From a bacterium (GTDB lineage Bacteria; SAR324; JACQKK01), in the NCBI GenBank assembly GCA_041476685.1, contig JBGOTW010000002.1, positions 1 to 51,890 on the forward strand: DNA of 51,890 bases, given 5' to 3'. Position 1 is the first letter of the stretch, and each line of letters begins with the position of its first letter. Positions 1-29,288 of the stretch are shown piece by piece. The notes below the pieces were generated by a model. The model was not told the DNA's origin. It saw only the letters and a program-made list of their open reading frames with translations, and did not search any database. Both the position numbers and the translations under genes were made by a program.

Positions 1-572
1 AGCACCGCCGCCACCATGGCGATGTTCAGCAGGACCGGCGAAGCCGCCGGTGACCAGAAACGCTTCTCCGCGTTGAGAATGCCCATGGCCCACGCCACCA
101 CCGACACGAACGCCAGGTACGGAAATGTCCAGCGCGTGAACAGGGCGGTCAGGGCGAGCTGGTCAGGGCGATGCTCGTAGCCCGGGGAGAACAGCAGCGT
201 GACTTCGCGGCTGTACACCATCCCCACGGTGCTAAGCGCAACGGTCCCGGCCAGCACCAGCCCTAGCACCTTAGCCGCGAAGCGCCCGGCGGCCTCACGC
301 CCACGCCGCTCGCGGACCTCCACATAGACCGGGATGAAGGCGATCGTCATCGAGCCCTCGGCCGTCAGCCGCCGCAGGGCGTTGGGGATGCGAAACGCCT
401 GCACCCACGCGTCGGTGGCGCCGCTCGCCCCGAACAGGTGGGAGATCACCAGGTCCCGCACCATCCCCATCATGCGCGAGAGCAGAGTGAAGAAAGTCAC
501 GACGCCCGCGGACCCGTAGAGGTTGTCCGCTTCCCCGGCCACGCTTGCCGGAGCAGGCGCGTGCGCGGGCAT
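1..572 (-). CDS. murJ: Lipid II flippase MurJ/MviN, N-terminal ~190 codons (the gene runs off the left edge of the window)
   Basis: This CDS is absent from the ORF track because it is open at the window edge. Hand translation of the minus strand from the ATG at 572-570 gives MPAHAPAPASVAGEADNLYGSAGVVTFFTLLSRMMGMVRDLVISHLFGASGATDAWVQAFRIPNALRRLTAEGSMTIAFIPVYVE...RFWSPAASPVLLNIAMVAAV with no stop. The TLLSR..G..RD..FGA..DA...AF.IPN.LRR..AEG and PA..PVLLNI blocks are MurJ N-terminal signatures. The tracked ORF 295..714(-) is in another frame. Confidence 0.85.
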   Translation of the reverse strand, partial: MPAHAPAPASVAGEADNLYGSAGVVTFFTLLSRMMGMVRDLVISHLFGASGATDAWVQAFRIPNALRRLTAEGSMTIAFIPVYVEVRERRGREAAGRFAAKVLGLVLAGTVALSTVGMVYSREVTLLFSPGYEHRPDQLALTALFTRWTFPYLAFVSVVAWAMGILNAEKRFWSPAASPVLLNIAMVAAV

Positions 573-768
573 AGCCTGCGGAGCGTGTGGCGGGGGGGGC
601 GATGGCGGCGAAGGTGTCACAGGGCCGGAGGCGGCTGGGAAACCAGGAATGGGGCGGCGAGTCGTCCGGGTTATCGCAGATCGCCGCGAGCACTTCAACG
701 CGGCGGCCGGGCAAGCCCGCCGCTCATCGCCGTGCGGCGCATCCCCGGGCCCATGTTTCCGGCACGGC

Positions 769-2184
769 TCAACCCCGAACGGCGCGGCCCCGGAACGCGC
801 CCTGGCAGATGCGCTGCAAGACGTCCTGCAGCAGCACGCGCATCACCGGTCCTTGGCGCCTGGCGGCCAGGTCCAGCTCGCTCAGGGAGCGCTGGATGCG
901 CTCGAGCTCCAGCCGCGAGAAGCGCTGGGCCTGGGTAGCCAGACGCTTTGCGAGGAACGGATGGACCTTGAGGCGCTGGGCAAGCTCGGAGTCGGAGGCA
1001 TTGTCCTCCCTAGCGAGGTGCACCTGGCGCAACTGCCGAAAGTGGCGGGCCAGCACCGCGATCATCATAGGATACTCATGGGCCGAATCGGACAGGATGC
1101 GCTCCAGCACGCCAAGCGCACCCGCCAAGTCGCGGGCCGCGGCGCACTCGGCGAGGGTGAAAACGGAACCCTGCTGTTCCAGGCGCACCGTATCGAGCAG
1201 CGCCTCCTCGGAGACAGTCTGCCCGGGCAAGGCGAGCAGCTGGAGCCGGTCCAGCTCCTGGACGAGCCGTCCCATGTCGTTGCCGACGCGCTGGATCAAT
1301 AGCTCTGCGGCGTAAGGGGACAAGGGCAGCTTGCGCTCGCGGCCCATGCCCAACAGCCACTCCACCGGCGCCTGGTCCGCGTACAGGACGTGCTTGTCCA
1401 GGCGCCCCAGGCGGCGCACACGCTCGAGCAACTCCTTCGACAGGTCCGCCTCGCGTGTGCAGTCGGCTGTCAGCAGCAGCGACAGGCCCGGCGGGGGATT
1501 GTCCAACACTCGCTCGAGGATCTGGTGCAGCCGCGCGGCGCCCGAACTCGTGCCCGCGGCGGCGGTCCCTTCCGCACCCTCGGCGGGCGGCTCGGCCTCG
1601 TCGGAGAATGCGAACTTGGTCTTGACGCGGCGCCGCAGGAACGCCCGCACGCCCAGCCTGGCGCCTTCCTCGTCCGCGACGATCGTCACCTCGTCCGCGC
1701 CGGGCGCCAGCTCCACGAGCGGCCCGCCTGCGGCGCGGGGCGAGACGCCCGCGATCCAGCGCGACAGCGGCAGCGCGCCCGGCGCTGCCCCGTCCGCCTC
1801 GGTCACTGCGCGCCACGCCTCCCCGCGCCCATCCTCCACACGCCGCAGCCGAAGCTCTTCCAAGGAGCGCAGCAGCGCCTGGGCCGAGCGATCCGGCAGA
1901 CGCACCGCCTCCAAGTGGTCCAGGCGCACCAGGTATCGCTCGCTCAGCAGCGGCGCTGACATGCAGGCCTCGTGGAAGCCTTCCACCCGCGCCAGCACCG
2001 CCTCGCCCCCGCCCGCCTTGAGCAGCTCCGCCGCGTCGAAACGCTGCAGAGAGAAGTCGCGCGGGCCCTCGCCCAACACGAGGTCCCCGTATGCCGCCGC
2101 GGCATGATCCACCCCATAGGCCTGGTTGCCGTAGATCAGCAGGACCTGCGGCGCGGCGCGGGACGGAGCGGGCTTTGCGGCCAT
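769..2184 (-). CDS. holA: DNA polymerase III delta subunit (HolA) with a large internal insertion
   Basis: 471 aa. The N-terminus VLLIYGNQAYGVDHAA and the C-terminal half (LIQRVGNDMGRLVQELDRLQLL...VFTLAECAAARDLAGALGVLERIL...VHPFLAKRL...LSELDLAARR) follow the HolA pattern. It lies 7 nt downstream of ptsP on the same strand. Confidence 0.8.
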   Translation of the reverse strand: MAAKPAPSRAAPQVLLIYGNQAYGVDHAAAAYGDLVLGEGPRDFSLQRFDAAELLKAGGGEAVLARVEGFHEACMSAPLLSERYLVRLDHLEAVRLPDRSAQALLRSLEELRLRRVEDGRGEAWRAVTEADGAAPGALPLSRWIAGVSPRAAGGPLVELAPGADEVTIVADEEGARLGVRAFLRRRVKTKFAFSDEAEPPAEGAEGTAAAGTSSGAARLHQILERVLDNPPPGLSLLLTADCTREADLSKELLERVRRLGRLDKHVLYADQAPVEWLLGMGRERKLPLSPYAAELLIQRVGNDMGRLVQELDRLQLLALPGQTVSEEALLDTVRLEQQGSVFTLAECAAARDLAGALGVLERILSDSAHEYPMMIAVLARHFRQLRQVHLAREDNASDSELAQRLKVHPFLAKRLATQAQRFSRLELERIQRSLSELDLAARRQGPVMRVLLQDVLQRICQGAFRGRAVRG

Positions 2185-2191
2185 GAGGAAG

Positions 2192-4510
2192 TCAGTGCGG
2201 CGCGGCGGCCGCTCGTGGGGAAGTCAGCTGCAGGTTGCGCCGCACGTCCACCGCGCTGGTGGAATCGAGCGCGGCCCGGCCGATCTCCTCCAGCTCGGCC
2301 AGCGTGTACTGGGACAGGCGGTCCTTGACGATCGGAATCAGCGGCGCGTTCATGCTCAGCTCGCGCAGGCCCAGGCCCACCAACACCATGCAGCCATCGG
2401 GGTCGGAGGCGACCTCACCGATCAGACCCAGGGGCTTTCCCGCGCGCCGCGCAGCATCCACCAGCATCGCCACCATGCGCAACACCGCCGGCGCGAGCGG
2501 ATCGTACAGGTCGCTCACGAGGGGATTGTTCCGGTCCACCGCGAGCACGTACTGGGTCAGGTCGTTGCTACCGATGCAGAGAAAGTCCACCTCGCCCACA
2601 TACAGCTCGCTTTGCAGGATGGCGGCAGGCACCTCGAACAGCATGCCGACCCGCGGCAGGGGCACCTCCTTGCCGGTTTTTCGCCGCAGCTCGGAGTGAC
2701 AATCGAACAGAACGCGCTTCACCTCCTGCAGCTCCTGGAGCTGGGTGATCATGGGTAGCAGGATGCGCACCGGGCCCAGGTGCGCCACGCGCAGAATCGC
2801 AGTGAATTGCTCCCGCAGCAGGTCCGGGCGCCGCAACTGGAAGCGCATGGAGCGGCAGCCGAGGAACGGGTTTTCCTCCTTTGGCATCTCCAGGTACGTC
2901 GGCACGCTGTCCCCGCCCAAGTCCAGCATACGGAACACGACCGGCTGAGGCGCGGCGACCTCGATGCACCTGGCGTACGCCTGCGTCAGCTCATCCACGG
3001 TGGGTCGGGTGGAGCGCATCAGGTAGAACACTTCCGTGCGGTACAGTCCGATTCCCTCCGCGCCGGAGGTGCGGTAGTCCTCCAGGTCCTGGGTAAGGCC
3101 CACATTGGCGCGCAGCGCGACGCGCACGCCGTCGCGAGTGGCGCCGGGCACCAGCCGCAGATCCTCCAGGTGCGACAGGTACTCGCGCCGGGTCTGCTGG
3201 TAGCGCTCGTATTCCTGGCTGAGGGTGCCGGTGGGATTGACGAACAAGCGGCCGTTCTGCCCGTCGAGCAGTGCCTCCTCGCCCTCGTGCAGGAGCGTGA
3301 CGACGCCCTCCACGCCGCTCACCGCCGGGATGCGCAGGCTGCGCGCCAGGATCGCCGCGTGGGAGACATAACCGCCCACGGCGGTGACGATGCCGCGGAT
3401 GCGCCGCGGATCGAGGCGTGCAGTGTCGCTCGGGCTAAGCATCTCGGCCACGAGAATCCCGCTGCGCTTGTGCATTTCCCCGTCATCGAGATGGTAGCCC
3501 AGGTGGCTCAGCAGCCGGTGGCCGACGTCGTCAAGGTCCGCACCGCGCTCCTTCAGGTAAGGATCGTCGATGTTCTGGAACGCCCGGAGGTATTCCTGGA
3601 CGACGTGCCAAACGGCCCAAGCCGCCGTCGACCCGCTGGCGATGGGGTCGCGGATACGCTTGAGGAACGTCCGGTCCTCCAGGAACATCAGGTGCGCGTG
3701 GAAGATCTGCGCCTCCTCCTCGCTCACGCGCGCGGTGATCTGCTCGATCAGCTCGAGGATCTCCGCTTCGGAAGCCGAGAGCGCCTGATCGAGCCGATGT
3801 TGCTCGTCGGCGGGGCTGACCTGGGAAGCCTTGACCGGCTCCTCGCGCGTGCGGCGCGTGAGAATGAACACCTTGTCCTTCGCCAGACCCGGGGCGAGGG
3901 GTACACCTTCGAGTTGCATCGGCTCGCCACGCTTGCGGGTGCCGTCCGCCTGGTCCGCCTCCTTCTGGATGCGATTGACCAGCAGCGCCTTGGAGATCAG
4001 TCCGGAGATCTGCGAGGCGATGGTGATGAGCAGATTCTCCTCCTCCGGATCGAACAGCCGGTTTTCCTGGTTCTGGATCGCCAGCACGCCCAGGGGGCGC
4101 CGGTATTCGATCAGCGGCACGCCGAGGAAGGAGGAGAGCTTCTCCTCGTCGATGGAGGGGAAGTACTTGTAGCGGGGATGCCTGCCGACGTCACGCAGGT
4201 TCACCGGTGCCTGCTGCTCAAGCACCAGGCCAATCATGCCTTCGCTCATCGGCATGCGCACGCGCCCAACGGCTTGAGGATTCAGGCCGTGAGTGGCTTT
4301 CAGCTCCAGCAGGTGGGTGTGCTCGTCGTGGATGTAGATCGAGCAGACGTCCGCACTCATTCGCTCGGCGATCAGGTTGACCGTCTGCTGCAGCGTCTCG
4401 TCGAGGTCGTGGGACGTAGTGATGATGCGGCTGATGTCGATCAGCGTCTGGAGGATCTCGGTCTTGCGACCGCCTCCCGCGTCCGATCGGTTCATCGCCG
4501 GCTTCTTCAT
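2192..4510 (-). CDS. ptsP: Phosphoenolpyruvate-protein phosphotransferase PtsP (GAF domain plus PTS enzyme I, nitrogen-PTS type)
   Basis: 772 aa. It has an N-terminal GAF-like region (VCSIYIHDEHTHLLELKATHGL...FLGVPL), then enzyme I blocks: GGYVSHAAILARSLRIPAV (phospho-His region), GIGLYRTEVFYL and DFLCIGSNDLTQYVLAVDR. Confidence 0.9.
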   Translation of the reverse strand: MKKPAMNRSDAGGGRKTEILQTLIDISRIITTSHDLDETLQQTVNLIAERMSADVCSIYIHDEHTHLLELKATHGLNPQAVGRVRMPMSEGMIGLVLEQQAPVNLRDVGRHPRYKYFPSIDEEKLSSFLGVPLIEYRRPLGVLAIQNQENRLFDPEEENLLITIASQISGLISKALLVNRIQKEADQADGTRKRGEPMQLEGVPLAPGLAKDKVFILTRRTREEPVKASQVSPADEQHRLDQALSASEAEILELIEQITARVSEEEAQIFHAHLMFLEDRTFLKRIRDPIASGSTAAWAVWHVVQEYLRAFQNIDDPYLKERGADLDDVGHRLLSHLGYHLDDGEMHKRSGILVAEMLSPSDTARLDPRRIRGIVTAVGGYVSHAAILARSLRIPAVSGVEGVVTLLHEGEEALLDGQNGRLFVNPTGTLSQEYERYQQTRREYLSHLEDLRLVPGATRDGVRVALRANVGLTQDLEDYRTSGAEGIGLYRTEVFYLMRSTRPTVDELTQAYARCIEVAAPQPVVFRMLDLGGDSVPTYLEMPKEENPFLGCRSMRFQLRRPDLLREQFTAILRVAHLGPVRILLPMITQLQELQEVKRVLFDCHSELRRKTGKEVPLPRVGMLFEVPAAILQSELYVGEVDFLCIGSNDLTQYVLAVDRNNPLVSDLYDPLAPAVLRMVAMLVDAARRAGKPLGLIGEVASDPDGCMVLVGLGLRELSMNAPLIPIVKDRLSQYTLAELEEIGRAALDSTSAVDVRRNLQLTSPRAAAAPH

Positions 4511-4855
4511 CTGGGCTCTTGCGTTCCTGGGGCGCTAATGCGGCATCTGCCGGCCCTCCACCCGGGAAGGCGTCCGGCTGAACGTCGAGGAGCGGCCATG
4601 ATCAGGGAAACGGTATTGCAGGGGCCGTGCGATGCCACGGCGGCGACCCGCTGCTTTTTCAGACTACACCAGCCGTTCGCCTTTTCCCACCGCCCCGCGG
4701 ACGGCTTGACTTCCGGGACCGTTCGCTCATGGTGATGCGTAACCCCTGCCGACAGTTGCCCGGGCAACAGAAGCCCATCGCACTCCCGGCAGGCCCGGCG
4801 AAAGCCGTTCCGGCGGGCCGGGCCCGCTCACGTCCTCCCCAACCGGCGACCGCGC

Positions 4856-5965
4856 TTGACCGCGACACCCATCGTCAACTTCTCCCGCAATCGGCGCCAG
4901 GAATTGGCTGAGCTGGTGGATTCGTCCCTGCGCAGCAAGCTGTTTCCGGGCATGGAGCTGCTCGTTGCGCGGGGGGAGGAGCTGTTGTTGCACGAGGCCT
5001 GGGGCATCCTGGAGGTCGGTCCGGACGCCCCGGCCATGGCGCCGGGCACCGTCTTCGACATCGCCTCTCTCACCAAACCCATCGGGACCGCCACGCTGCT
5101 GCTGGTGCTGCTGGAGCAGGGCAAGCTCACGCTGGAGGACAAGGTCTGCGACTCCTTCCCCGAGTTCGAGACTCCGGAGAAGAAGGGGATCACGCTGCGG
5201 CACCTGCTGACCCACACCGCCGGCCTGCCTGCCTGGGTGGACTTCTACAGCAACACGCGCGGCCAGGCGGAGGCGATGCGCAGCCTGCTCCACACGCCTC
5301 TGCAGCACCCGACGGGAACGGCCATGCTGTACAGCGACCTGGGCTACCTGATCCTGGGCGAGCTGGTGCGGCGGGTGAGCGGCAGCAGCCTGACCGAATT
5401 TTTCCTGCGCAGCGTCAGCCATCCGTTGCATATGACGCACACGGCCTTCAATCCGATCGATCAGGGCATCCCTGGCCCCTTTGCCCCGACCCAGTACTGT
5501 CCGTGGCGCAAGCAGCTGCTGCGCGGCGTGGTGCACGACGAGAACGCGTACGCCTTCGGCGGCGAAGGCGGCAACGCCGGATTGTTTTCCACGGGCGCCG
5601 ACCTATGGCGCTATGCCCGGATGATCCTGGACGGCGGGGAGCTGGACGGGGTGCGCGTGCTGGCCCCGCGCACAGTGGCGCGCATGACTTCCAACCACAA
5701 TCCGCACCGGCTGCCACCGCGTGGGCTGGGTTGGGACATCAAGGGCGAGGGATTCGGCTACGTGAGCTGTGGAGAGCTGATGGCGCCCGGCTCCATCGGG
5801 CACACGGGCTTCACCGGCACGTCCCTGTGGCTGGAACCGGAAAGCGGCTTCCTGGTCATCCTGCTCACCAACCGCGTGCACATGGCGCGGGAGCGCAATC
5901 AACCTGAGATGGTCCGCTTTCGGCCACGCCTGCACAATCTGGTAGTGAGCTTGTTCGGTAAGTGA
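4856..5965 (+). CDS. Serine hydrolase, beta-lactamase/PBP-like (class C / EstB-like family)
   Basis: 369 aa with SxxK (ASLTKP), a YxN-like motif (YSDLGY) and an HTG box (GHTGFTGTS). The tracked start is a TTG, so the exact start is uncertain. Confidence 0.85.
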   Translation: MTATPIVNFSRNRRQELAELVDSSLRSKLFPGMELLVARGEELLLHEAWGILEVGPDAPAMAPGTVFDIASLTKPIGTATLLLVLLEQGKLTLEDKVCDSFPEFETPEKKGITLRHLLTHTAGLPAWVDFYSNTRGQAEAMRSLLHTPLQHPTGTAMLYSDLGYLILGELVRRVSGSSLTEFFLRSVSHPLHMTHTAFNPIDQGIPGPFAPTQYCPWRKQLLRGVVHDENAYAFGGEGGNAGLFSTGADLWRYARMILDGGELDGVRVLAPRTVARMTSNHNPHRLPPRGLGWDIKGEGFGYVSCGELMAPGSIGHTGFTGTSLWLEPESGFLVILLTNRVHMARERNQPEMVRFRPRLHNLVVSLFGK

Positions 5966-5991
5966 CGGCCGACTCGGTCAACCGCATACAT

Positions 5992-7011
5992 CTACTGCTC
6001 CTTTGTTGCCGGCTTGGGCTTCTTGCGCACCAGCACGAACAGCTCTCCGCGCTCCTCCATCTCCTTCGCCGTCGTGGCGATGCGGCGCTGGGCCGCCTCG
6101 ACCAGCGCGATCGAGGTCGGCCCCAACTCGTCAAGGGCCTGGCCGATGGACGCAGCGGCCTGAGGCGAGAGGTTGGCCAGGAAGTGCCGCTTGAGGTCCT
6201 CGTCGGCAAGCTTGAGGGCCAGCACGATGTCTTCTCCCGGCGTGCGCGCCAGCACCTTCTGCATGCCGTAGCTATCCACCTTGATGAAATCGTCGAAGGA
6301 GAAGAGGTGGTCGCGGATGCGCTCGGCTAGGGCGGGGTCCCGGCGCTCGATGTGGCCCAGCCAGCGGCTCTCCGTCGCGCCGGTGGCAGAAGCGAGCAGG
6401 GAGGCCACGCGCTGGGGACCGCTGTCACCGGCAGCGTCCGGGTCCGAGCCGGGCGGCTCGCTGAGCGACTGCTCGATTTCTTCCAGCCAAGCGGTAGGTA
6501 TGGTGCGCAGCTTCGCCAAGCGCGGCTGGAGGTCCCGCTGCAGCGCCTCCGGCAATGCGGCCAGCACGGCCCGTTCCAGCCGCACGTCGCCCAAGTTGGC
6601 TAGAATCACTGCGATCACCTGCGGATGCTCCCCGGCAATGAACGCGGCAATCGTTCCCGGATCGTGCCACTTCAAGCGCTCCAAGGCGCTGCCAGTGCCG
6701 GCCTTGACCATGCCGTCCACGATACCCTGCGCTCTCGCCTCGCCCAGGGCCTTGCCCAGCACCTTTTTGAGGTACTGGACGCGGGTTTCAGGAGGCTCGG
6801 GCAGGATGCGGGCTTTTTCGGCGACGAGGTAGAATTCGCTGGTGACGCGGGTCACGTCCTGGGGCGAGACCTCCTCCAACCGGCTCATGTATGCCGCGAC
6901 TTCCTCGATCTCGTCCTGCGACAGGTTCTTGAGCACCTCGGCAGCCGATTCCTCGCCGAGCGCGAGGAGCAGGATGGCCGCCTTCTGGGGTCCAGTGAGC
7001 CGACGGGCCAT
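5992..7011 (-). CDS. FliG-family protein (flagellar rotor/switch protein homologue), non-canonical context
   Basis: 339 aa, full FliG length. It carries the N-terminal LTGPQKAAILLLALGEESAAEVLKNL, the middle-domain GEHPQVIAVILANL (EHPQ motif) and HLFSFDDFIKVD (MFxF-type motif), and ends in a C-terminal domain with GPTSIALVEAAQRRI..MEERGEL. A GGAGG lies just upstream of the ATG. Confidence 0.85.
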   Translation of the reverse strand: MARRLTGPQKAAILLLALGEESAAEVLKNLSQDEIEEVAAYMSRLEEVSPQDVTRVTSEFYLVAEKARILPEPPETRVQYLKKVLGKALGEARAQGIVDGMVKAGTGSALERLKWHDPGTIAAFIAGEHPQVIAVILANLGDVRLERAVLAALPEALQRDLQPRLAKLRTIPTAWLEEIEQSLSEPPGSDPDAAGDSGPQRVASLLASATGATESRWLGHIERRDPALAERIRDHLFSFDDFIKVDSYGMQKVLARTPGEDIVLALKLADEDLKRHFLANLSPQAAASIGQALDELGPTSIALVEAAQRRIATTAKEMEERGELFVLVRKKPKPATKEQ

Positions 7012-7077
7012 GTGCCTCCGCAGCGAATGCCGCCAAGCGCCGGGGCTTCGCGTGCGCCGTCCGAGGCGCCAAGCCCC

Positions 7078-7650
7078 TTACCGCCTCGGGACCGGAGTCG
7101 CGCCTCTATCCGTGAGATTGTCCCAGTAGGTATCAAACTCCGCGCCGTTTTCAAGCAGCAGCTTGCGCGTCGCGACGACCTCCCCGAACGGGGTCTCCGG
7201 GGCGGCATATGCGCGCAAGGCCAGCCAGTTCGACCGGCGTAGGGGTACGACGACCTGATTGCGGAATTCCTGGGGCGAGTAACCACGTCCTTCGTAGACG
7301 ATCCGGCCGCCCGGCAACACCTCGTAGTTGACGCGCACCGTGCGGCGCAGGTTGCGCCGCTCTTCCTGCCGCTCTAGCTGCGCCTGGCGGTCCTTTTCCT
7401 CCTTCTGGACAGCCATCAGCCGCTCGACCAGCTCGACCATAGCATTGCCGCGCGCCTCGGGGTTGACGACGCCTTCGGGCAGAGCGGCGGAGAGGGAGCC
7501 TTGCACCCGCTCCAATTGCACGCGCGCCTGCTCGCGCTCTTTCTGCACAAAAAAGAGCAGCAGCGTGAAGAAAGCCACCACGAGGAAGAGCAGGTCGATG
7601 GTGGCGATCAGCGGGCCCCAGGACTTGCGTTCGCTCGGGACGGAGCTCAT
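7078..7650 (-). CDS. MotB/ExbD/TolR-like single-pass membrane protein (stator plug/anchor subunit homologue) without an OmpA-type peptidoglycan-binding domain
   Basis: 190 aa. It has one N-terminal TM with an embedded Asp (WGPLIATIDLLFLVVAFFTLLLFF) and a charged helical spacer (EREQARVQLERVQ...QKEEKDRQAQLERQEERR). The C-terminal segment resembles the ExbD/TolR periplasmic fold (WLALRAYAAPETPFGEVVATRKLLLENG). Its ATG overlaps the upstream stop (ATGA at 7647-7650). Confidence 0.7.
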   Translation of the reverse strand: MSSVPSERKSWGPLIATIDLLFLVVAFFTLLLFFVQKEREQARVQLERVQGSLSAALPEGVVNPEARGNAMVELVERLMAVQKEEKDRQAQLERQEERRNLRRTVRVNYEVLPGGRIVYEGRGYSPQEFRNQVVVPLRRSNWLALRAYAAPETPFGEVVATRKLLLENGAEFDTYWDNLTDRGATPVPRR

Positions 7651-9242
7651 CGGCGCTCCCGGAACGCGCGCGGCCGACCGAGTATCCGTTCAGGGCCGCT
7701 CGCGGGGTTGCCGTCGGCCGGAGTCGGGCCCGCCAGCGGCGCGCCGAGGCTGGTCACGGAGCCTGGCCTGTCCAGCTCGGCCTCCGGCTCCGGGAAGGCC
7801 ATGGCACGCACGCGAGGCTCGTCGCTGAGCATGCCGGACCGACTGCCTCCGAGTTGGCCAAGCTGGCCGGAGATGCGCTCGAGCAGCAGGAGCGTGTCGT
7901 GCGTCAGCACGCGTAGCTGGAGCAGGTCGTGCTCCGTGCGCTCGGCGGGTTCGGGCGGCGCCGCGGGCGCCTGTGCGGGCTGGGCCTGCGCAGCCACTTG
8001 ATCGAGCTTGGTGGTCAACTCGCGCATCGCCTGGCCGACCTGGGTGAAGCCGCGCTGCTGCTGCTCGAGGTGGCGGGGATCGAACACCTGGCTGAAGGCA
8101 CGCACGGCATTGCGCAATTCGTGGACGACGTCCGCGGAGCGCGCGGCCAGCACGCCGCTGTCCATACCGCGATGCAGCTCGGTGAACTCGCTGAGCTGCC
8201 GCGAAAGCTGTTCCAGCGACTCGCTGAAGCGGCGCTCGCCAAGACTCGGCCCGCTCGCGTATGGCACGAGGCTTGGGCCCTGCGCGGATTGCACCGCGCC
8301 CGCCCGGTCCAGCACGGCCTGCTGAGTGGGCAGGATGAACATGGCCATGAGCATCTGCAGCGTGCTCAGAATCTCGTTCATGGCCCGTTCGTTGCGCATG
8401 TGCAGCGGCCGCAGCACCAGCACAAACAGGTTGGCCAGCAGCGTGGTGCCCAGCGCCGTGCCGAATCCGGTCAGGATCGAGAGTTCCGGCGCCAAGGCAT
8501 TGACGTGGAACGCCTGGAACATCTGGGTCAGGCCGATCAGCGTGCCGAGCAGCCCCAGCTGGGGCAGGACTTCGATCAGCGTCCAGGTGAGCTTCATGCC
8601 TCGCTGGGACAGCAGCGTCTGGATGTCGGTAATGGAGGCGTCCTGATACACCCAGGTGCGTCGCGCGCCCGACTCAAACGTGCGTAGGATGTTCTGATAG
8701 TGTATTTGCATCAGGCTGCTGCGGAACACGGTCTTCTTGCGCCACGCCAGCAGGCCCGGCTTGGCCTCCGCCTTCCGCTCCGCCTCGGCCTCGGCTTCCT
8801 CGCTGCTGCTGCGCTTGTTGATCATCTCCCCGTCCAGATCGAGGCGATGGGCCTCCAGGTGGAAGAAGACGCCGTCGCGGAACGTCACGAGCAACGCCAA
8901 GCCGAAGACACCGAAGATCGCACCATAGATCAGGTACGTGGCCCAGGTCGGGGTCGCGTACGCAAGGCCGAGGGCACCCCCGGCCAACAGCAAATACAGT
9001 ACGTTCCATTGCAGCGGCGAGCTCAGGTCCACGCGGTGCGGGGGCAGCTCTATGCGCTGGCCGTCCTTGCGGTCCTGCGCGTCGCGCAGCTTCTGGTCGG
9101 CGAATTCGCGCCAGGAGGGCAGGTTCTCGATCACGCGCTGCTCGATGTGCCGCGAGCTCAGCAAGCCGAGCAGCCAGCCAATGGGGAAGTGCGAGGTAGT
9201 TCGGGTCCGCCCGCCGCCCATCTTGGAGAACGGGTTGTGCAT
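7647..9242 (-). CDS. MotA/TolQ/ExbB-family proton-channel protein with MotA-like 2+2 TM topology and a long C-terminal helical tail
   Basis: 531 aa. Two TMs lie at about residues 88-133, followed by a charged loop of about 95 aa. The family signature follows: TWTLIEVLPQLGLLGTLIGLTQMF ... LSILTGFGTALGTTLLANLFVLVLRPL. After that comes about 230 aa of Q/E/R/L-rich helical sequence. Confidence 0.8.
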   Translation of the reverse strand: MHNPFSKMGGGRTRTTSHFPIGWLLGLLSSRHIEQRVIENLPSWREFADQKLRDAQDRKDGQRIELPPHRVDLSSPLQWNVLYLLLAGGALGLAYATPTWATYLIYGAIFGVFGLALLVTFRDGVFFHLEAHRLDLDGEMINKRSSSEEAEAEAERKAEAKPGLLAWRKKTVFRSSLMQIHYQNILRTFESGARRTWVYQDASITDIQTLLSQRGMKLTWTLIEVLPQLGLLGTLIGLTQMFQAFHVNALAPELSILTGFGTALGTTLLANLFVLVLRPLHMRNERAMNEILSTLQMLMAMFILPTQQAVLDRAGAVQSAQGPSLVPYASGPSLGERRFSESLEQLSRQLSEFTELHRGMDSGVLAARSADVVHELRNAVRAFSQVFDPRHLEQQQRGFTQVGQAMRELTTKLDQVAAQAQPAQAPAAPPEPAERTEHDLLQLRVLTHDTLLLLERISGQLGQLGGSRSGMLSDEPRVRAMAFPEPEAELDRPGSVTSLGAPLAGPTPADGNPASGPERILGRPRAFRERR

Positions 9243-9627
9243 GGGTTGTCCCTAGCGAGAGAAGCGCCCGGTCCGGTGTCGCGCTCCATTCCGCGACCCG
9301 CGTGCCCGCGAGGCGGTGCTTGTCTCCGGATCGGACTTGAATTATGGGGGATTTCCTCCGGCATGGCAAACTTGCGAGCCGCGTTTACCATGCGTCGCTG
9401 CGGCATGGCACCGACTCCGCTCGCCCGCGTGGAACGGGCCTCCCGGGCCACTTTTCCGAGTTCGTTCCGCCGCCTGGCACTGCATGCACGGTGCTCGATG
9501 CCGAATGCCGGCGCGCTTTGGGACCAGCACGCAATCCGGAACGGGGCAAGGGCAATTGCGTCCGCCCGCCTGAACGGTCACGATTGGAGTTTCCGCACAC
9601 GGTGCAACCCTTGACCCGGAGCGCTCC

Positions 9628-10443
9628 ATGAAAGTGATCCCGATCCCGTGCCTGAAGGACAACTACGCCTACCTCCTCGTTGACGATCAGACCGGCGAGG
9701 CGGGCGTGGTGGATCCGTCGGAAGCGCCGCCGGTAGAGGCTGCGCTCAAGCTGGCGGGCGTGCGCCTGAGTGCGATCCTCAATACGCACCATCACTGGGA
9801 CCACACCGGGGGGAACAAGCCCCTGCTGGGCGCGCATCCGAAGCTCAAGGTGTATGGACACGCCTCGGACCGGGGCCGCATCGATGGCCAGACCGATGCC
9901 CTGCAGCACGGCCAGGAATTCGCGCTGGGCACGCTGCGCCTGCGCGCCCTGCACAATCCCGGACACACGACCGGCGCCGTCAGCTACGCGGTCGGAGACG
10001 CCGTATTCACGGGCGACACGATGTTCGCCGCCGGCTGCGGGCGGCTGTTCGAGGGCACACCGGAAATGATGCACGCCTCGCTGTGCAAGGTGATCGGGAG
10101 CCTGCCCCGCCCCACGCGCATCTTCTTCGGGCACGAGTACACCGAGAACAACCTGCGCTTCGCTGCGGCGGTCGAGCCGGACAACGCGGCCGTGCTCGCA
10201 AAGCTGGCGCGGGTGCGCACGTTGCGCACCTCGGGCGGGATCACCACCCCTTCCACGCTGGAGGAGGAATGGGCGACTAACCCGTTCATGCGCTTCGATA
10301 GCCCGACCCTGCGCAAGCACGTACAGGCTGCGGACCCAGGCAACGACCTGAGCCCGGTCTCCGTGCTGGGAGCGGTGCGCAGGATGAAGGACAACTTCGG
10401 AGTCGGAAGCGGGCCGCACTCCTCCGCCTCGCTGCGAGTGTGA
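9628..10443 (+). CDS. gloB: Hydroxyacylglutathione hydrolase (glyoxalase II), MBL fold
   Basis: 271 aa. It reads MKVIPIPCLKDNYAYLL...NTHHHWDHTGGN...HNPGHTTGAVSY...FTGDTMFAAGCGRLFEG...GHEYTENNLRFA...TTPSTLEEEWATNPFMR, which is the canonical GloB motif order. Confidence 0.9.
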   Translation: MKVIPIPCLKDNYAYLLVDDQTGEAGVVDPSEAPPVEAALKLAGVRLSAILNTHHHWDHTGGNKPLLGAHPKLKVYGHASDRGRIDGQTDALQHGQEFALGTLRLRALHNPGHTTGAVSYAVGDAVFTGDTMFAAGCGRLFEGTPEMMHASLCKVIGSLPRPTRIFFGHEYTENNLRFAAAVEPDNAAVLAKLARVRTLRTSGGITTPSTLEEEWATNPFMRFDSPTLRKHVQAADPGNDLSPVSVLGAVRRMKDNFGVGSGPHSSASLRV

Positions 10444-10780
10444 GCGCAGGCCCGCGTTCGGACCCGTGCGGATCGGCCGGCGCACCGCAACAGGCAGACG
10501 GATTCCCCCCGCACCGGAATCGGACCGCGCAGCTCCCGCCCGCCCCGGCCCCGGAGGGCGGGCCGTATGGCGCAAGTCACTTGACGCGGGTCAATCCCAC
10601 GCGGATTCGGCGCACCGGCGGGTTTGACTTCGGCTAGAATTGACCGTAGCAAAGGACGGCGAATTTCCCGGCGCGCCCGCGGCAACCCGTCCCGCAAAGG
10701 TTGGGACGCGAGCGGCCGTGCGGACGGATCCCCGGCGCACACCACCAATCCCCTTTTTTTCGCAACGAGGAGAACGCAGC

Positions 10781-12013
10781 GTGGCCAAAATCAAGGTGAA
10801 GAATCCGGTAGTGGAGCTCGACGGCGACGAGATGACCCGCATCATCTGGGCCGACATCAGGAACAAGCTGATCCTGCCCTACCTGGATGTGGACCTGAAA
10901 TACTACGACCTCAGCGTACAGTACCGCGATAAGACGAGCGACCAGGTCACGGTGGACGCGGCCAACGCCATCCGGCAGTACAGCGTCGGCGTCAAGTGCG
11001 CGACGATCACCCCGGACGAGGACCGCGTCAAGGAGTTCGGGTTGAAGAAGATGTGGAAGAGCCCGAACGGCACTCTGCGCAATATCCTCGGTGGCACGAT
11101 CTTCCGTGAACCGATCGTCTGCAAGAACATTCCCAAGCTCGTGCCCGCCTGGACCAAGCCCATCGTCATCGGCCGTCACGCCCATGCCGACCAGTACAAG
11201 GCCACGGATGTCATCGTTCCGGGCAAGGGATCGCTCAAGATGGTCTTTCAGCCCGACGGCGGGGGCAAGGCCCAGGAGTGGGAAATCAACAAGTTCGACG
11301 GCCCGGGCATCGGGATGGGCATGTTCAATACCGACCAGTCCATCACCGACTTCGCGAAGGCATGCTTCCAGTATGCGCTTATGCGAAAGCTCCCGATGTA
11401 CCTGAGCACGAAGAACACCATCCTGAAAACCTACGACGGGCGCTTCCGCGACATCTTCGCCCAGGTCTTCGAGAAGGAATACCAGACGCAGTTCAAGTCC
11501 GCCGGCCTCACCTACGAGCATCGCCTCATCGACGACATGGTCGCCTCCGTGCTGAAGTGGAGCGGCGGCATCCTGTGGGCGTGCAAGAACTACGACGGGG
11601 ACGTGCAGTCCGACACGGTCGCCCAGGGCTTCGGTTCGCTCGGCCTGATGTCCTCCGTGTTGCTATGCGCGGACGGTAAGACGATGGAAGCCGAGGCGGC
11701 CCACGGCACGGTGACGCGCCACTACCGCATGCACCAGCAGGGCAAGCCCACCAGCACCAATCCCATCGCCAGCATCTTCGCCTGGACGCGCGGACTGGCC
11801 CATCGCGGCCGCCTGGACGGGACGCCCGACGTGGTGAAATTCTGCGATACGCTGGAGAAGGTGTGCGTGGACACCGTGGAAAGCGGCAAGATGACGAAAG
11901 ACCTCGCCGCCAGCATTCACAACACCATCAATCCGCCCGAGGGCACCTTCCAGAGCACGCAGCAGTTCATGGATACCCTCTCCGGCAACCTGAAGCGGGC
12001 GCTGGGCGCCTGA
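10781..12013 (+). CDS. icd: NADP-dependent isocitrate dehydrogenase (eukaryotic-like homodimeric subfamily)
   Basis: I trimmed the tracked ORF to the GTG at 10781, which is preceded by GAGGAG 8 nt upstream. The product begins (M)[22 protein letters not shown]...CATITPDE...GGTIFREPI...[14 protein letters not shown], as in IDH1-type enzymes (410 aa). Confidence 0.9.
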
Positions 12014-12029
12014 GGCACGGCTGCACCGA

Positions 12030-12053
12030 GCGCGGCCGGGCGGCCGGCCGCGC
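12030..12053 (+). terminator. Perfect 10-bp GC hairpin 17 nt after the icd stop (terminator-like, no U-tract)
   Basis: GCGCGGCCGG-GCGG-CCGGCCGCGC read directly from the sequence. No T-run follows, so function as an intrinsic terminator is uncertain. Confidence 0.45.
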
Positions 12054-12120
12054 CATCCAAGGGGAAGGCACCTCCCCGCAACCGCTCGCGCACTGCGGCG
12101 ACACGGCCTGCCGTGCGGGA

Positions 12121-12879
12121 CTAAGCTCCTTCCTCGAGGAACTGCTCCAGGCGGCGATTGACCTGCGCGTACTGGGTGACGAAGGGCACGTGCCCGGCGC
12201 CCCGGCACAGGAAGAACGCCGAATGACGCAGCAGCTTGCGCAGCAGCTCCCCCTGCCATACCGGGCAGAGGCGATCTTCCTCCCCCTGCACGACCAGCAC
12301 GCGGCAGTCCAGGTGCGGAAGCACCTCAAGGTAGTCGTGACTGGCCAGGGTGTCGAAGGCCAGCTTAAGGAAGTCGCTCGCCTCGAACGGAGTCGGCTGC
12401 TTCGCCTCGGGTAGAGCCTCCTCGGCGGCACTGAAGGCCAGCTGGTGGTAGTGGCGCAGCATCTGGCGCGGATCGTCGTGCAGCTCCTTGCGCATCTCCG
12501 CCACGCGCTCCGGTGCCTGCCCGGACAGGTAGTTTCCGCCATTGGTGAAGCGAGCAAATCCGCCCAGCAGCACCAGCGCGCCGGGTTGCAGGCCGCGCTG
12601 AATCAGCTCGTAGGCGATGTAGGCGCCCAGCCCGTGCGCAAGGATCGCCTTGGGTTTTCGGTCCGCCGAATCAAGCTGCTGCTCGATGCCCAGGCTGACG
12701 TGCTCGAGCAGGTTTTCGTGGGTCGCCTCGGCGGGGCAGGGGTCGAGATTATAGTCCACCACCAGATTGCGGTACCGCCCGCGGAAGAATTCGACCTGTC
12801 GGTTCCACACTTGGGACTGGAAACCCCAGTCGTGCAGGTAGAGCAGGGCCGGTCCTTGGCCCACCACTTCCAGCCTCAT
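12121..12879 (-). CDS. Alpha/beta-hydrolase fold protein (BioH-like size), nucleophile elbow apparently AHGLG instead of GxSxG
   Basis: 252 aa. It has LLYLHDWGFQSQVW (HG-type oxyanion region), AILAHGLGAYIAYEL at the elbow position, VVQGEEDRLCP and GAGHVPFV (acid and His positions). It starts 21 nt downstream of lpxB on the same strand. Confidence 0.75.
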   Translation of the reverse strand: MRLEVVGQGPALLYLHDWGFQSQVWNRQVEFFRGRYRNLVVDYNLDPCPAEATHENLLEHVSLGIEQQLDSADRKPKAILAHGLGAYIAYELIQRGLQPGALVLLGGFARFTNGGNYLSGQAPERVAEMRKELHDDPRQMLRHYHQLAFSAAEEALPEAKQPTPFEASDFLKLAFDTLASHDYLEVLPHLDCRVLVVQGEEDRLCPVWQGELLRKLLRHSAFFLCRGAGHVPFVTQYAQVNRRLEQFLEEGA

Positions 12880-18873: not shown

Positions 18874-20286
18874 CTAGGGCGGCCAGGCGAGACGCACGCG
18901 CAGGCTTACGACATGCACCGGACCGCGGTCGCGGTTGAAGCCGGGATTCTCGAATGCCTGGTAGTCCGGCGTGATGTACAGGAGCCGCCCAAGCTGCAGC
19001 CGGTAGTACGCCTCCACGACTGTCTCCCGCCCATAATTCAGCCGTCCGTCGCCCAGCACGAAGCCTACGCCGCCTGCCTCGAGGTACGCGCGGTGATCCG
19101 GCGACAGACCCTCGACAACCCCGCCCAGCCCGACAACATCCGTTGCCCGGCCCCACACTGCGCCGGAAACCTGCACGCCTAGGCTGAGGTGCTCGTCGGC
19201 TTCCGTGTACGCAAAGGACTCGGTCTTGCCGTCGTTCCAGCCAGCCCGCAGGAATACGCCGGTCTCGCCGCCGTGCGCGAGGGGCTGCTCGGCGCTGAGC
19301 GCCCAGCCGTACTTGATCCGGCCCGGCTCGTCGTTTGCGGCAATGTCGGGTGGCCTACCCCGTGCGAGCGCCTCCCGGTAGCTCCCCATTTTCGCCAGAT
19401 TGCGGTACGCGAGCAGCCGCAACACTCCGCCCCCGCCTCCCTCACCGCTCTCGCCCAGGGTGAGCTGCACGTTCTCCCCGCGGGCCCGCGCCAAGTCCCC
19501 ATCGAGCATATTGCCATTGGCGAATGTGGGCATCTGGAACACGCCCAGGTGCAGCGCCAGCCCGGGCCGCACCCAGCCCGTCACGATCCCATTGCTGTAG
19601 CCCCTCGTGTCCGCCGCGAAGTCCCAGGCCGTGTTGTTGATGAGCGCCCAGTTCATGAATTGCAGCCGCGTCGAATTGGCATAACGGTTCTGATCGAAGT
19701 CATCGGTCGCGGCGAGCTTGCCCAGCTTGAACTCCAGCCGCCGCACGGGTTTGGGCACGGCCAATTCGCCCGGACCCGCCTGCGCACGTTCCGTGCTCCC
19801 GGCCAGCGCAATCCACGTGCGCAGGTAAGCCCGCGCAACGTAGGGCCCTTGCCCCAGATTCACCGTCCCTACGCGCAGTTCGTCCCCATTGGGCAGCGCC
19901 GCCAGCCCGAGCGCCTGGCTCACTGCCTGTCCGCGCAGTACCTCCACGTCAAGAAAAGCGTGCAGCGCGTCGGCCAGCCGCCAACCCAGACTGACCCCAT
20001 AGGACTGGGTGGTCTGGTCGTCCCCATCGGAGACGAGGCTGTTGGGGCCATTGTAGGGCGAGGGGAATGGATACAGGTGTTGCCGTATGAGCGTGTAGTG
20101 CAGCCCGAGCAGACGCAGCGGCTCGGCATCCGAAGTTGCGGAAGGCGGCACGACGGTTTCCTGCGCCTCTGCGGGCGGCGACAGCACTGCCAGGGCAAGA
20201 CCGAGCAGCACGTGACTCAGCCACAGCGGACCCTGACGCAACGGAACAGCGCTCAACTTCCGGCGGCGCACGTCCAGCCCTGGCAT
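18874..20286 (-). CDS. oprB: Carbohydrate-selective porin, OprB family
   Basis: 470 aa. It has a signal peptide ending AEAQE, then LHYTLIRQHLYPFPSPYNGPNSL...GKLAATDDFDQNRYANSTRLQFMNWALINN...DFAADTRGYSNG...YQAFENPGFNRDRGPVHVVSLRVRLAW, characteristic of OprB-like porins. Confidence 0.85.
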   Translation of the reverse strand: MPGLDVRRRKLSAVPLRQGPLWLSHVLLGLALAVLSPPAEAQETVVPPSATSDAEPLRLLGLHYTLIRQHLYPFPSPYNGPNSLVSDGDDQTTQSYGVSLGWRLADALHAFLDVEVLRGQAVSQALGLAALPNGDELRVGTVNLGQGPYVARAYLRTWIALAGSTERAQAGPGELAVPKPVRRLEFKLGKLAATDDFDQNRYANSTRLQFMNWALINNTAWDFAADTRGYSNGIVTGWVRPGLALHLGVFQMPTFANGNMLDGDLARARGENVQLTLGESGEGGGGGVLRLLAYRNLAKMGSYREALARGRPPDIAANDEPGRIKYGWALSAEQPLAHGGETGVFLRAGWNDGKTESFAYTEADEHLSLGVQVSGAVWGRATDVVGLGGVVEGLSPDHRAYLEAGGVGFVLGDGRLNYGRETVVEAYYRLQLGRLLYITPDYQAFENPGFNRDRGPVHVVSLRVRLAWPP

Positions 20287-20455
20287 GTCACTCGTTCATG
20301 AAGGGGCCGTAGCCCGCCGTCCGCCCGCAGGTAAATCGTCGAGAGATAGCCTTGCTGGGCAGACTCCGCCATCAAAATTGTTCCGGTGGGCGCTGGCCCA
20401 CGACGGAACGCACGGCAACATCCGCATCGCCTTGGAGTCCAGGCGCACCGCCCAC

Positions 20456-22315: not shown

Positions 22316-22717
22316 CCGGGAGTGCTTGCAAGCCACTGGGCACCGGGGTGCTGGTGAATGCCCTCCAGGGCAGCGAATCAGCGCGACAGGAATTACCGCC
22401 CCAATCCAAGGGCTGCGGGTCCGAAGGAACCCAAGGAAGCCGTGGATATCGGGTCCCTGGCGCATGGGTCGCAGAGCCTTCTGCGAGCTATGCAGATAGT
22501 GTGACACAGGCGGGGGGGAGCGGGAAATGACCTGTGGTACAGTTCCGGCACAACTGCGGTTTTGGCCGGGACACGAACCACGCAAGCTCGGGTCGGCGCT
22601 GCCTGCCGCACACGCCGCAAGTGGCCCGGTCCGATTTCGGCTTTGTCAAATCGTTGCTTGCACAGAGCGGATTGGCGTCGTGACTCAGCCTGCGTCCACT
22701 CCTGCTGGATAATCGCA

Positions 22718-28500: not shown

Positions 28501-29288
28501 TTGCCGTGGCTCCCCGCTCGGCACCTGAAGCTCAGCGCCGCACCGCTGCTGCGGCGGCGCCCCTTGCGCAGGCCGCTCGCATGGGCAGCGACGCTCCTCA
28601 GGGGGAGAGTGGTTCCCTGGCGGGGAGGCGGCTCACGGCAGACTGGCGCCTGCCCGAACTGGCACTTCGCGCAGCCTCTCAGGGGCCGCAGCCTGGGGAA
28701 GCACCCGCCGCCGAACCGGTGGTGTTTGACTGGGCCGGACCGCAGGCGCGGCTGGTGGGCACCGTGGTGCATGCGTTCTTGCAGCGCATCGCCCAAGAGA
28801 CCCTCGAGGCCTGGGACGGCGCGGCCTTACAGGGCCGGCGGGAGACGGTGCGGCGGCTATTGATCCGGGCGGGTCTGGTCGGGCCGGAGCTGGGAGCGGC
28901 GACAGAGCGGGTACTGCAGGCGTTGAGCCAGGCGCTTGCGGACCCGCGCGGACGTTGGGTGCTGGGTCCGCAAGGCGAGGCACGCGCCGAGTGGGAATTG
29001 ACGGTCCGGGTGGACGGACGCACGCGTCGCATCGCGCCGGACCGCACATTCGTAGCCGCGGACGGCGCGCATTGGATCGTAGACTACAAGACCGGCTCCC
29101 ACGCGGGCGGCAACCTCGAAGAATTCCTGGACAGGGAGCGCGAGCGTTATCGGCCACAGCTCGAGCGCTACGCGCGCGCCCTGCGCGCCCTTGACGCGCG
29201 CAGAGCCATTCGCTGCGGGCTGTATTTTCCGCTTGCCTGCGCCGCGGACGGCACGGGGGGATGGCGGGAATGGGAGTTTCGCCCCTGA
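25569..29288 (+). CDS. AddA-like UvrD/Rep-family helicase with C-terminal PD-(D/E)XK nuclease domain
   Basis: Trimmed to the ATG at 25569, overlapping the upstream gene by 11 nt. It carries APAGSGKTALLIQR (Walker A), LLVDEFQDSS, GDPMQSIYRFREA, NFRARP, TIHEAKGLEFD, YVAYTRAKERL and, near the C-terminus, HWIVDYKTG. Confidence 0.85.
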   Translation: MTLDGNPFLATQAGDDAPIRAAALDPRGSFIVRAPAGSGKTALLIQRLLRLLAEVDAPEEIVAITFTRKAAAEMRERLLGALRLGTEEATPDKPLERELWTLARAALAHAAQRGWSVLRHPNRLRIQTFDAFCHALARQHPWRSGLGGPLQLTEDPEPLYRNAARATLALLDSREPEAAAAAHLLRLRDVRVEQVEDLLVQMLARRDQWLRHLPPQERGAAAHGWAPGSAEAAGLRAALEAALARIVTEALTDLRAEAEAVARVLSAGDTGGAGMLARHCARLARHAVARTESGLALALAPAANLTDLPGSAPGDALAWRALATLLLTQQGTWRKPRGINARLGFPTGMVGTPEGDLKADMQELLVALEGHERLRGCLAGLEHLPSPAYTDAQWETLGALAALLRRAAALLRQSFSAAGVVDFVEMARAAEHVAAAWNVPPAGARENRGTDEDGPEGPGIRHLLVDEFQDSSHAQFRLLMLLTRRWQAGDGRSLFLVGDPMQSIYRFREADVGLFLQAELRGIGGVHLEPLRLERNFRARPGIVAQTNRTFAAVFPVEADALRGAVTYAPSRAALTEPRAGEGPSAAAVQLHPVIVAANAGGREGEEREAALVADLARAALAEQMSARGSVAILVQARTHLQAILPALARAGVPLQAVALDPLDRRPAVLDLLSLTRALLYPGDRIAWLAVLHAPWCGLGLADLEALTLATAERTLWEALDSTEADRAGATAPAERLASGAAVPGPDSISAAGRRRIVRLRTALAPAVAELGRVPLRRTVEGAWLALGGPACMAAADKADVRAFFDVLDGLEAEGAVPSPEELGRRLARLRSVPAPAAGPLVQVMTIHEAKGLEFDTVILPGLHRATGRDTRPLLRWLERPTAQGSDLVLAPIPSLWTPPGAPSSQAGAHEDPIQRYLDNVEQSRAEHERRRLLYVAYTRAKERLHLLGVAYYDGGRVKAPRAGTLLAALWPAVEAEFAVAPRSAPEAQRRTAAAAAPLAQAARMGSDAPQGESGSLAGRRLTADWRLPELALRAASQGPQPGEAPAAEPVVFDWAGPQARLVGTVVHAFLQRIAQETLEAWDGAALQGRRETVRRLLIRAGLVGPELGAATERVLQALSQALADPRGRWVLGPQGEARAEWELTVRVDGRTRRIAPDRTFVAADGAHWIVDYKTGSHAGGNLEEFLDRERERYRPQLERYARALRALDARRAIRCGLYFPLACAADGTGGWREWEFRP

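Follow-up and report, generated by a model that had tools for sequence, protein, structure and literature searches.

The flagellar stators MotAB and PomAB, the ExbBD and TolQR motors, the generic ion transporter (GIT) class of MotAB homologues and the ZorAB motor of Zorya anti-phage defence are the described systems with which the locus reported here can best be compared. The origin of the flagellar stator is widely attributed to an ion motor resembling ExbBD or TolQR that was recruited to push FliG, as discussed by Puente-Lelievre et al., 2025 (PMC12505986). The same paper, which defines the GIT class, has a single mention of FliG; this stands in the introduction and concerns the rotor partner on which flagellar stators act, not the GIT complexes. 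Here we describe a stretch of 51,890 nucleotides (nt) from a SAR324 bacterium (contig JBGOTW010000002.1; hereafter the window), in which three adjacent genes, the trio, encode the A and B subunits of a putative ion-driven motor of the Tol/Exb type together with a full-length homologue of FliG. To our knowledge, no living system is known that couples a motor of the ExbBD/TolQR type to FliG. The first-pass annotation of the window, which was made from the sequence alone, had likewise held such a motor with a dedicated FliG to be undescribed, and our targeted full-text literature searches found none.

The three genes are co-directional on the minus strand, in the order A, B, fliG:

7647..9242, minus strand: A subunit gene, 531 amino acids (aa), MotA/ExbB/TolQ superfamily by Pfam, alignment, AlphaFold2 (AF2) model and Foldseek
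7078..7650, minus strand: B subunit gene, 190 aa, by family alignment, AF2 model and Foldseek
5992..7011, minus strand: FliG-family gene, 339 aa, with N, M and C domains, by Pfam, NCBIfam and PDB sequence matches

The A and B genes overlap in an ATGA stop/start sequence at 7647-7650 and 66 nt separate the B gene from fliG (7078 to 7011). Ribosome-binding sites of the GGAG type lie 5' of the B gene and of fliG, with GGAGG just before the latter, and no terminator-like site was found on the minus strand within the trio. Orientation, overlap and gap had all been read correctly in the first-pass annotation.

These three genes are a real, conserved functional unit. Every contig of sufficient length has A, B and fliG side by side in this order, with a single exception (L010 in our numbering of related loci, discussed below); the arrangement recurs at 45-89% identity in about 35 independent loci, many more than would be expected by chance. 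The common synteny is isocitrate dehydrogenase (IDH), gloB, the trio, a hydrolase, PtsP and holA, and the trio is also intact amid quite different neighbours in L051, where it is next to a P2-like prophage, in L052, where it lies between a methyltransferase and GcpE, and in L053. The test of neighbourhood conservation proposed in the first-pass annotation thus found the unit kept in several different settings, whereas clustering of open reading frames (ORFs) over 20 loci found no universally linked gene besides the trio itself. The trio appears to be inherited vertically, in housekeeping synteny. One lineage departs from the common form: in L002/L017 (CBDBIG010000003.1, a 877-kb contig, 10001-12711; GC 50%) the A subunit is tail-less, with 326 aa, and the FliG is only 28% identical to that of the window, with a very long branch in the tree and EHPQ changed to EQPQ; the module may be degenerating or re-specialising there.

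The distribution of the unit is narrow. Of 185,579 species genomes only 14 carry the A gene, which was also found at 25 loci in metagenomes; a word-based homology search returned 82 related proteins with 44-88% identity, and all named relatives come from SAR324, Candidatus Lambdaproteobacteria or "Deltaproteobacteria" metagenome-assembled genomes (MAGs). The 14 genomes are the MAGs JAPUJL01, JACQHH01 (GCA_016199125.1), JBGOUY01, JACZVE01, DATFMP01, JAOUFO01, JAPUIH01, JAOUEW01, CBDUSX01, JACZSY01, JACZRV01, JAOUPZ01, CAZOXD01 and CBDBIG01. When 1.84 billion representative proteins were searched with a profile of the A family, 19 matches reached E<=1e-30, all over family-specific regions, and the other 29 ranged from short family fragments to weak matches mostly limited to the third and fourth transmembrane helices (TM3-TM4); beyond such weak TM3-TM4 matches, the search found no relative outside the family. 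Judged by these searches, the A family is small and sharply isolated in sequence, a further point in which it differs from ExbB and TolQ.

The first-pass annotation had ascribed true MotA topology to the A subunit, and this held for the four TM helices but does not extend to the predicted fold. In the AF2 model, the N-terminus is cytosolic and a segment of about 75 aa precedes TM1 (residues 76-96) and TM2 (98 to about 122), which are followed by a loop of about 95 aa, TM3 (about 219-243) and TM4 (252 to about 280), making a total of four TM helices. Beyond TM4 lies a helical C-terminal tail of about 250 aa, with helices as far as residue 464 and a disordered end. The model has a mean predicted local distance difference test score (pLDDT) of 65, with values of 80-97 in the membrane core. 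When it was compared with the PDB by Foldseek, the top 45 chains were all ExbB or TolQ (E down to 2e-4; TM-score 0.5-0.7, and 0.6-0.7 for the best of them, normalised to the target), ZorA occupied ranks 46-48, and PomA came only 49th, with a TM-score of 0.28. The topology of A is MotA-like and its best structural matches are ExbB and TolQ; therefore, its predicted fold is of the Tol/Exb type. As in those proteins, long TM helices run on into a cytoplasmic bundle, and the cytoplasmic part, modelled with moderate confidence (pLDDT 47-87) as long helical extensions, resembles ExbB/TolQ rather than PomA and appears to lack the cytoplasmic fold of MotA and PomA. However, ExbB and TolQ have three TM helices and a periplasmic N-terminus, in contrast to the four TM helices, cytosolic N-terminus and long tail of the trio protein.

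Sequence comparison places A in the superfamily and outside the flagellar families. It matches Pfam MotA_ExbB at 31.6 bits (gathering score 22.9; 1.6e-7) over residues 212-296 only, and its best NCBIfam match, PomA, scores 23.6 bits against an equivalog cut-off of 341, so that the score of a MotA/PomA/MotP equivalog is not reached. Among PDB sequences, MotA and PomA are found at E 0.008-0.13, over TM3-TM4 only, and no other stretch of A is matched by Pfam MotA_ExbB or by MotA, PomA or TolQ sequences from the PDB. Four parts of the protein stand out:

8880..9014, minus strand: TM1 and TM2 of A (residues 77-121), hydrophobic helices in the AF2 model, pLDDT 80-94
8589..8726, minus strand: the most conserved cytoplasmic segment of A, residues 173-218 (FRSxLLQIHYQN..RR..QDAS..QRGMKL), by column identity
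8427..8567, minus strand: putative ion-path motifs of A in TM3-TM4, LPQLGLLGTLIGL ... FGTALGTTLLANL, by alignment
7860..7934, minus strand: a conserved amphipathic helix of the A tail, residues 437-461 (EHDLxQLRVLTHDTLxLLE), a conservation island

The motifs LPQLGLLGTLIGL and FGTALGTTLLANL are nearly invariant in 45 homologues; the LPQxGLxGT and ALGT..AN motifs of TM3 and TM4 are invariant, and the invariant residues of this stretch are P227, G230, G233, T234, G237, A263, G265, T267 and N271. Segment 173-218 has a mean column identity of 0.84-0.87, with R174, R187, E190, R194, R195, D201, D206, R214 and K217 conserved, and is a candidate contact face for a cytoplasmic partner. The helix at residues 437-461 is conserved at 0.76 amid a variable tail, with Q442, R444, D449, L451 and L453 invariant. 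It had no match among PDB sequences, including the C-terminal peptide of FliF, and is a candidate docking site.

In the B subunit, the single TM helix is followed by long helices spanning about 65 residues, an alpha/beta domain of the TolR/ExbD kind and an invariant C-terminal motif, and its AF2 model has a pLDDT of 79. The B family comprises 76 proteins. None of Pfam (including its ExbD model), NCBIfam and PADLOC gave a match to B, and its likeness to ExbD and TolR is thus one of structure only, in that the top 7 PDB matches of its C-terminal domain in Foldseek are periplasmic domains of TolR or ExbD (probability 0.82-1.0). Two of its features are of particular interest:

7594..7596, minus strand: Asp19 codon (GAC) of B, the membrane-embedded carboxylate, invariant in 42/42 homologues
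7117..7140, minus strand: the C-terminal EFDTYWDN motif of B, residues 171-178, by alignment

Asp19 lies within IDLLFL and is of the essential type found in ExbD and TolR; the TM helix also aligns weakly with that of PomB (E 0.16), with the Asp in register. In contrast to MotB and PomB, B has no peptidoglycan-binding domain of the OmpA type in Pfam or NCBIfam searches, in line with what the first-pass annotation had said of its membrane Asp, its ExbD-like fold and its missing anchor. In the EFDTYWDN motif E171, F172, D173, Y175, W176, D177 and N178 are invariant, and the model has low pLDDT there; conservation of this kind suggests a specific periplasmic partner. The motif comprises the last ordered residues of B and lies outside the TolR-like fold. 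Taken together, the features of A and B are characteristic of an ion-driven motor of the 5:2 type, as had been proposed, and the pair is not a canonical flagellar stator. It shares with the GIT class, whose members are described as non-flagellar relatives, a B subunit without plug and linker and an A subunit with diverse N- and C-terminal extensions, and differs from that class in its defining feature, the linkage to FliG.

The third protein is, as first annotated, a full-length FliG homologue. Its matches to Pfam FliG_N (2.7e-28, 99.0 bits), FliG_M (4.5e-22, 78.5 bits) and FliG_C (3.6e-34, 117.7 bits) are all far above the cut-offs, and it aligns end to end with solved FliG structures (residues 4-326, E 1e-40). 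With 216.8 bits against a cut-off of 226.7, it narrowly misses TIGR00207 and does not reach the equivalog score. Thus, in the profile searches that the first-pass annotation had suggested, A and the N, M and C domains of FliG score above the cut-offs of their models, while the ExbD model has no match to B. The functional sites of FliG lie as follows:

6619..6630, minus strand: EHPQ of the EHPQR motif, FliG residues 128-131, aligned to EHPQ of Salmonella FliG
6508-6531, minus strand: LQPRLAKL, with the Arg matching R160 of Salmonella FliG, by alignment
6112..6171, minus strand: torque-helix region of FliG, residues 281-300, by alignment to E. coli FliG

In flagellar motors, the EHPQR motif of FliG is the FliM-binding site and the N domain of FliG binds FliF. 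EHPQ and the matching Arg are conserved across trio-type FliGs, and conservation within this type is highest in the N domain (63%; C domain 54%). The stator-contact residues of the torque helix have fared differently: R281, D288, D289 and R297 (E. coli numbering) are replaced by Q, Q, A and S in the FliG of the window. In a comparison of 113 FliGs, the torque-helix charges are kept by canonical FliGs and by a group that includes SAR324-labelled FliGs, whereas trio-type FliGs have no conserved charge at these four positions; the loss is confined to the trio type. A neighbour-joining tree, which is unrooted and without support values, groups the canonical-type FliGs of SAR324 with canonical FliGs of other phyla and sets the trio type apart. 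That a diverged FliG copy can take on a specialised role is known from FliG1 and FliG2 of spirochetes; those organisms are flagellated, and we know of no spirochete FliG paralogue that is encoded with a Tol/Exb-type motor.

In two species (L001; L009/L053), the trio is part of a larger cluster, with the order fliM, X, A, B, fliG. Beyond fliG, L053 continues with hydrolase, PtsP and holA in the order seen in the window, and because of this identical order L053 is the orthologous locus. The linked FliM is canonical: it scores 227.8 bits on the Pfam FliM model and carries both the N-terminal CheY-binding motif, LSQNEVDALL, and the GGTG motif, which in FliM pairs with EHPQR of FliG. The FliGs linked to FliM are basal among trio-type FliGs in the unrooted tree and keep part of the canonical charge pattern. 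Protein X, encoded between fliM and the A gene (L001 9236-9904; L009 3116-3760; L053 9217-9876), has about 220 aa; it is soluble and conserved, at 53% identity between the species, and has no Pfam match. Neither FliM nor protein X was found in the window by tblastn.

The first-pass annotation had taken a further step, from the missing flagellar context to a possible non-flagellar system, and argued in this way the step is not supported. We examined five fliG genes of the canonical type, of which two carry the label SAR324 and the remainder are the nearest relatives of these that the search returned. They stand alone in five unrelated, non-flagellar neighbourhoods, none of them beside fliF or fliH. 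An improved marine SAR324 genome nevertheless contains 23/32 KEGG flagellar assembly genes (PMC4749706). Since canonical-type fliG genes stand alone even though one genome holds 23/32 of the assembly genes, flagellar genes appear scattered across the SAR324 phylum; such scatter looks normal here, and since the canonical-type fliG stood alone in all five contexts examined, missing flagellar neighbours are weak evidence. The FliM beside the trio in two species and the conservation of EHPQR and of the N domain weaken the same step. Flagellar motility genes have also been stated for all SAR324 genomes (PMC9031357), but the supplementary gene key of that study has only che genes, fliM and a methyl-accepting chemotaxis protein as motility-related entries, on which alone the statement appears to rest. 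Our literature searches found nothing on flagella of Lambdaproteobacteria, and PMC8364033, PMC10359470 and PMC9944714 offered no usable information on flagella in these lineages. The canonical-type fliG loci (L018, L019, L045, L047-L050 and the contig of P0222) keep the torque-helix charges.

Transcription of the unit probably starts from one site in the window:

9341..9369, minus strand: sigma-70-like promoter TTGCCA-17-CATAAT, about 100 nt upstream of the A gene, a consensus match only

A search for sigma-70-like promoters found one site where 0.2 were expected, and this site would drive a three-gene transcript. In many of the related loci a -10-like element (CATAAT or GATAAT) lies 100-140 nt upstream of the A gene.

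Based on these observations, we propose that the module is a lineage-specific alternative stator together with its co-diverged rotor protein, working on a flagellar-type ring of FliF and FliM, a reading to which we give a probability of roughly 45%. The three genes would encode one machine, in which A and B form an ion-driven motor of the 5:2 class whose structural type is that of ExbBD/TolQR rather than MotAB/PomAB. Ions would pass between Asp19 of B and the TM3-TM4 helices of A with their Pro, Gly and Thr lining, and this flow would turn the ring of A subunits around the B dimer, which may be held in the periplasm by its long helices, TolR-like domain and EFDTYWDN tail. The moving cytoplasmic face of A (HYQN..RR..QDAS), possibly with the tail helix, would work on FliG, itself presumably mounted on the ring through its conserved N domain (to FliF) and EHPQR (to FliM). 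The 5:2 stoichiometry, the rotation, the direct contact between A and FliG and a FliF/FliM ring in the window's organism are steps that we infer. The loss of the torque-helix charges that canonical MotA uses is consistent with co-divergence of the rotor protein and a non-canonical stator, and in the basal members the cluster still includes fliM. If the module does act on a FliF/FliM-type ring, it is part of the flagellar motor of this SAR324 subclade or a direct derivative of that motor.

Several observations weigh against such an alternative stator. Apart from fliG, the window showed no gene of the fli, flg, flh, che, ton or tol series in a Pfam scan of 40 further ORFs across it, as the first-pass annotation had reported and as tblastn with FliM bore out, and in the gene tables and ORF clusters of related trio loci the only flagellar gene besides fliG is fliM. 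The promoter in the window looks sigma-70-like, and no consistent sigma-28 or sigma-54 motif is present upstream of the A gene across 34 loci; in both context and promoter, where neither a flagellar regulon nor a FliA-type promoter was seen, the trio differs from MotAB and PomAB. In trio-type FliGs no conserved charges have taken the place of those lost from the torque helix, so that no contact surface stands out there, and outside the membrane core the model of A is only moderately confident. In L010 (JAPUIH010000031.1, 306-3534), from a SAR324 MAG, the serine hydrolase gene comes directly after the A and B genes, about 48 bp away, and there is no fliG at the locus, the sole such case among loci long enough to judge. 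Furthermore, we know of no flagellar motor with a stator in which A has the ExbB/TolQ fold and B lacks an OmpA-like anchor. Flagellar stators have, moreover, been described as a structurally conserved group (PMC12505986).

Many of the same observations would suit an autonomous, non-flagellar rotary or actuator machine, as the first-pass annotation had suggested, in which the Tol/Exb-type 5:2 motor has captured FliG, and in some species FliM as well, and turns a ring of FliG as its own cytoplasmic rotor or actuator, with no export apparatus, rod, hook or filament. Such a machine could have originated after flagellar loss in a subclade, might be under CheY control in some species, and would be an independent second coupling of an ion motor to flagellar switch proteins. 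It would account for a window without further flagellar genes and for related loci with fliM in two species as their only addition, for the non-flagellar structural type of A and B, for a promoter that is not of the FliA type and for the absence from FliG of the canonical stator-contact charges. The conserved helix in the long tail of A could itself dock FliG, and that the unit was retained through changes of neighbourhood also fits. However, missing flagellar neighbours are uninformative where the canonical-type fliG stands alone in five of five contexts, and flagellar assembly genes are documented in the phylum (PMC4749706). The FliG N domain and EHPQR are strongly conserved, as expected if FliF and FliM remain the partners, and the linked FliM has the CheY-binding motif typical of a chemotaxis-controlled flagellar switch. 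On balance, we regard an autonomous machine as the main alternative, though a doubtful one. Less plausible again is that FliG forms no ring but, as an adaptor, brake or regulator, only tethers or gates a Tol-like envelope motor from the cytoplasm, while the real output of this motor is periplasmic and runs through the TolR-like domain and EFDTYWDN. The TolR/ExbD-like domain and invariant C-terminal motif of B do suggest a periplasmic partner, the torque helix has no conserved charges, L010 keeps A and B without an adjacent fliG, and the L002 lineage combines a tail-less A with a fast-evolving FliG. Yet no TonB-, TolA- or Pal-like gene was found in the window, among the Pfam-annotated genes listed for six related loci or in the set of conserved neighbours, so that none of the examined loci links one to the trio, which in this respect, as in having a cytoplasmic FliG as its third gene, differs from ExbBD and TolQR. 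All three FliG domains are conserved, including the parts that build the ring and bind FliM, and in two species FliM is linked to the trio; we consider this reading improbable.

That these are simply the motA, motB and fliG genes of a normal flagellar regulon, displaced from it, is very unlikely and has been largely refuted by the membership tests. The four-TM topology of A, the resemblance of the B TM helix to that of PomB, a FliG just under the TIGR00207 cut-off and the scatter of fliG genes in the phylum would all suit displaced genes, but A falls far below the PomA cut-off, its 19 strong profile matches all cover family-specific regions, its fold is that of ExbB/TolQ with PomA well down the ranking, B has a TolR/ExbD-like domain in place of an OmpA-like one, and R281, D288, D289 and R297 are missing from FliG. 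A defence system was also considered, since ZorAB is a 5:2-type motor whose A subunit, like that of the trio, has a long helical cytoplasmic tail; B would then be the counterpart of ZorB. A weak PADLOC match to ZorA (E 0.056, TM region only), the ranking of ZorA structures directly behind ExbB and TolQ, and the prophage adjoining L051 point the same way. Nevertheless, PADLOC gave no significant match and no ZorB, neither PADLOC nor the neighbouring genes gave ZorC or ZorD, and B lacks the peptidoglycan-binding domain of ZorB. The trio lies in conserved housekeeping synteny of the core genome rather than in a defence island, and what it is linked to is FliG, alone or together with FliM. A defence system was therefore rejected from the PADLOC data and the context in the genome, and we regard a Zorya-like role as extremely unlikely.

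The trio ties a Tol/Exb-type motor and FliG together genetically, in an arrangement conserved across a bacterial lineage, which bears on the origin of the flagellar stator. If the module acts on a flagellar ring, it would be the first flagellar-type motor with a non-MotAB stator and, as the canonical charges are gone, a natural experiment in rebuilding the interface between stator and rotor. If it works without a flagellum, FliG and FliM would have a second cellular role. On either reading, the origin of stator-rotor coupling becomes testable in a system of three genes (five in two species).

The trio is flanked in the window by a beta-lactamase-fold serine hydrolase and by gloB, the flanks named in the first-pass annotation and identified here by Pfam. 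The other genes recognised in the Pfam scan of the window include MurJ, the DNA polymerase III delta subunit, PtsP, IDH, LpxB, RpoZ, DsbA, an OprB porin, an AddAB-like pair, a Kir-type channel, ThiI, RecO and HisA/F. No Rfam family reaches its gathering score anywhere in the window, and around the trio there are only chance-level matches.

A few further observations concern the surroundings of the trio in related loci. In L051, a P2-like prophage segment (portal, terminase, capsid, GpO, GpL, GpR) occupies positions 1-7358, about 2.5 kb upstream of the gloB-trio block. In L008, L031 and L041 (around 4346-7653 in L008), the IDH gene upstream of gloB matches in pieces about 2.5 kb apart, with frame changes, and looks as if it has been broken by an insertion. 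In two loci, short tandem repeats coincide with the start of the A gene or lie immediately ahead of it: L013 (around 5870-5920) has about four copies of AAAACTTCGGCG, and L001 (just upstream of 10001) has about three of CCTCGAA.

Elsewhere in the window, an ORF on the plus strand (36652-37926) matches IRK, Ion_trans_2 and IRK_C and encodes an inward-rectifier potassium channel of the KirBac type. A 2.3-kb stretch of about 72% GC (20285-22585) contains long ORFs that overlap on opposite strands, one of 297 aa (plus strand) and one of 709 aa (minus strand), with no Pfam match to either, and sits just upstream of the AddB/AddA-like nuclease-helicase pair (22562-29288).

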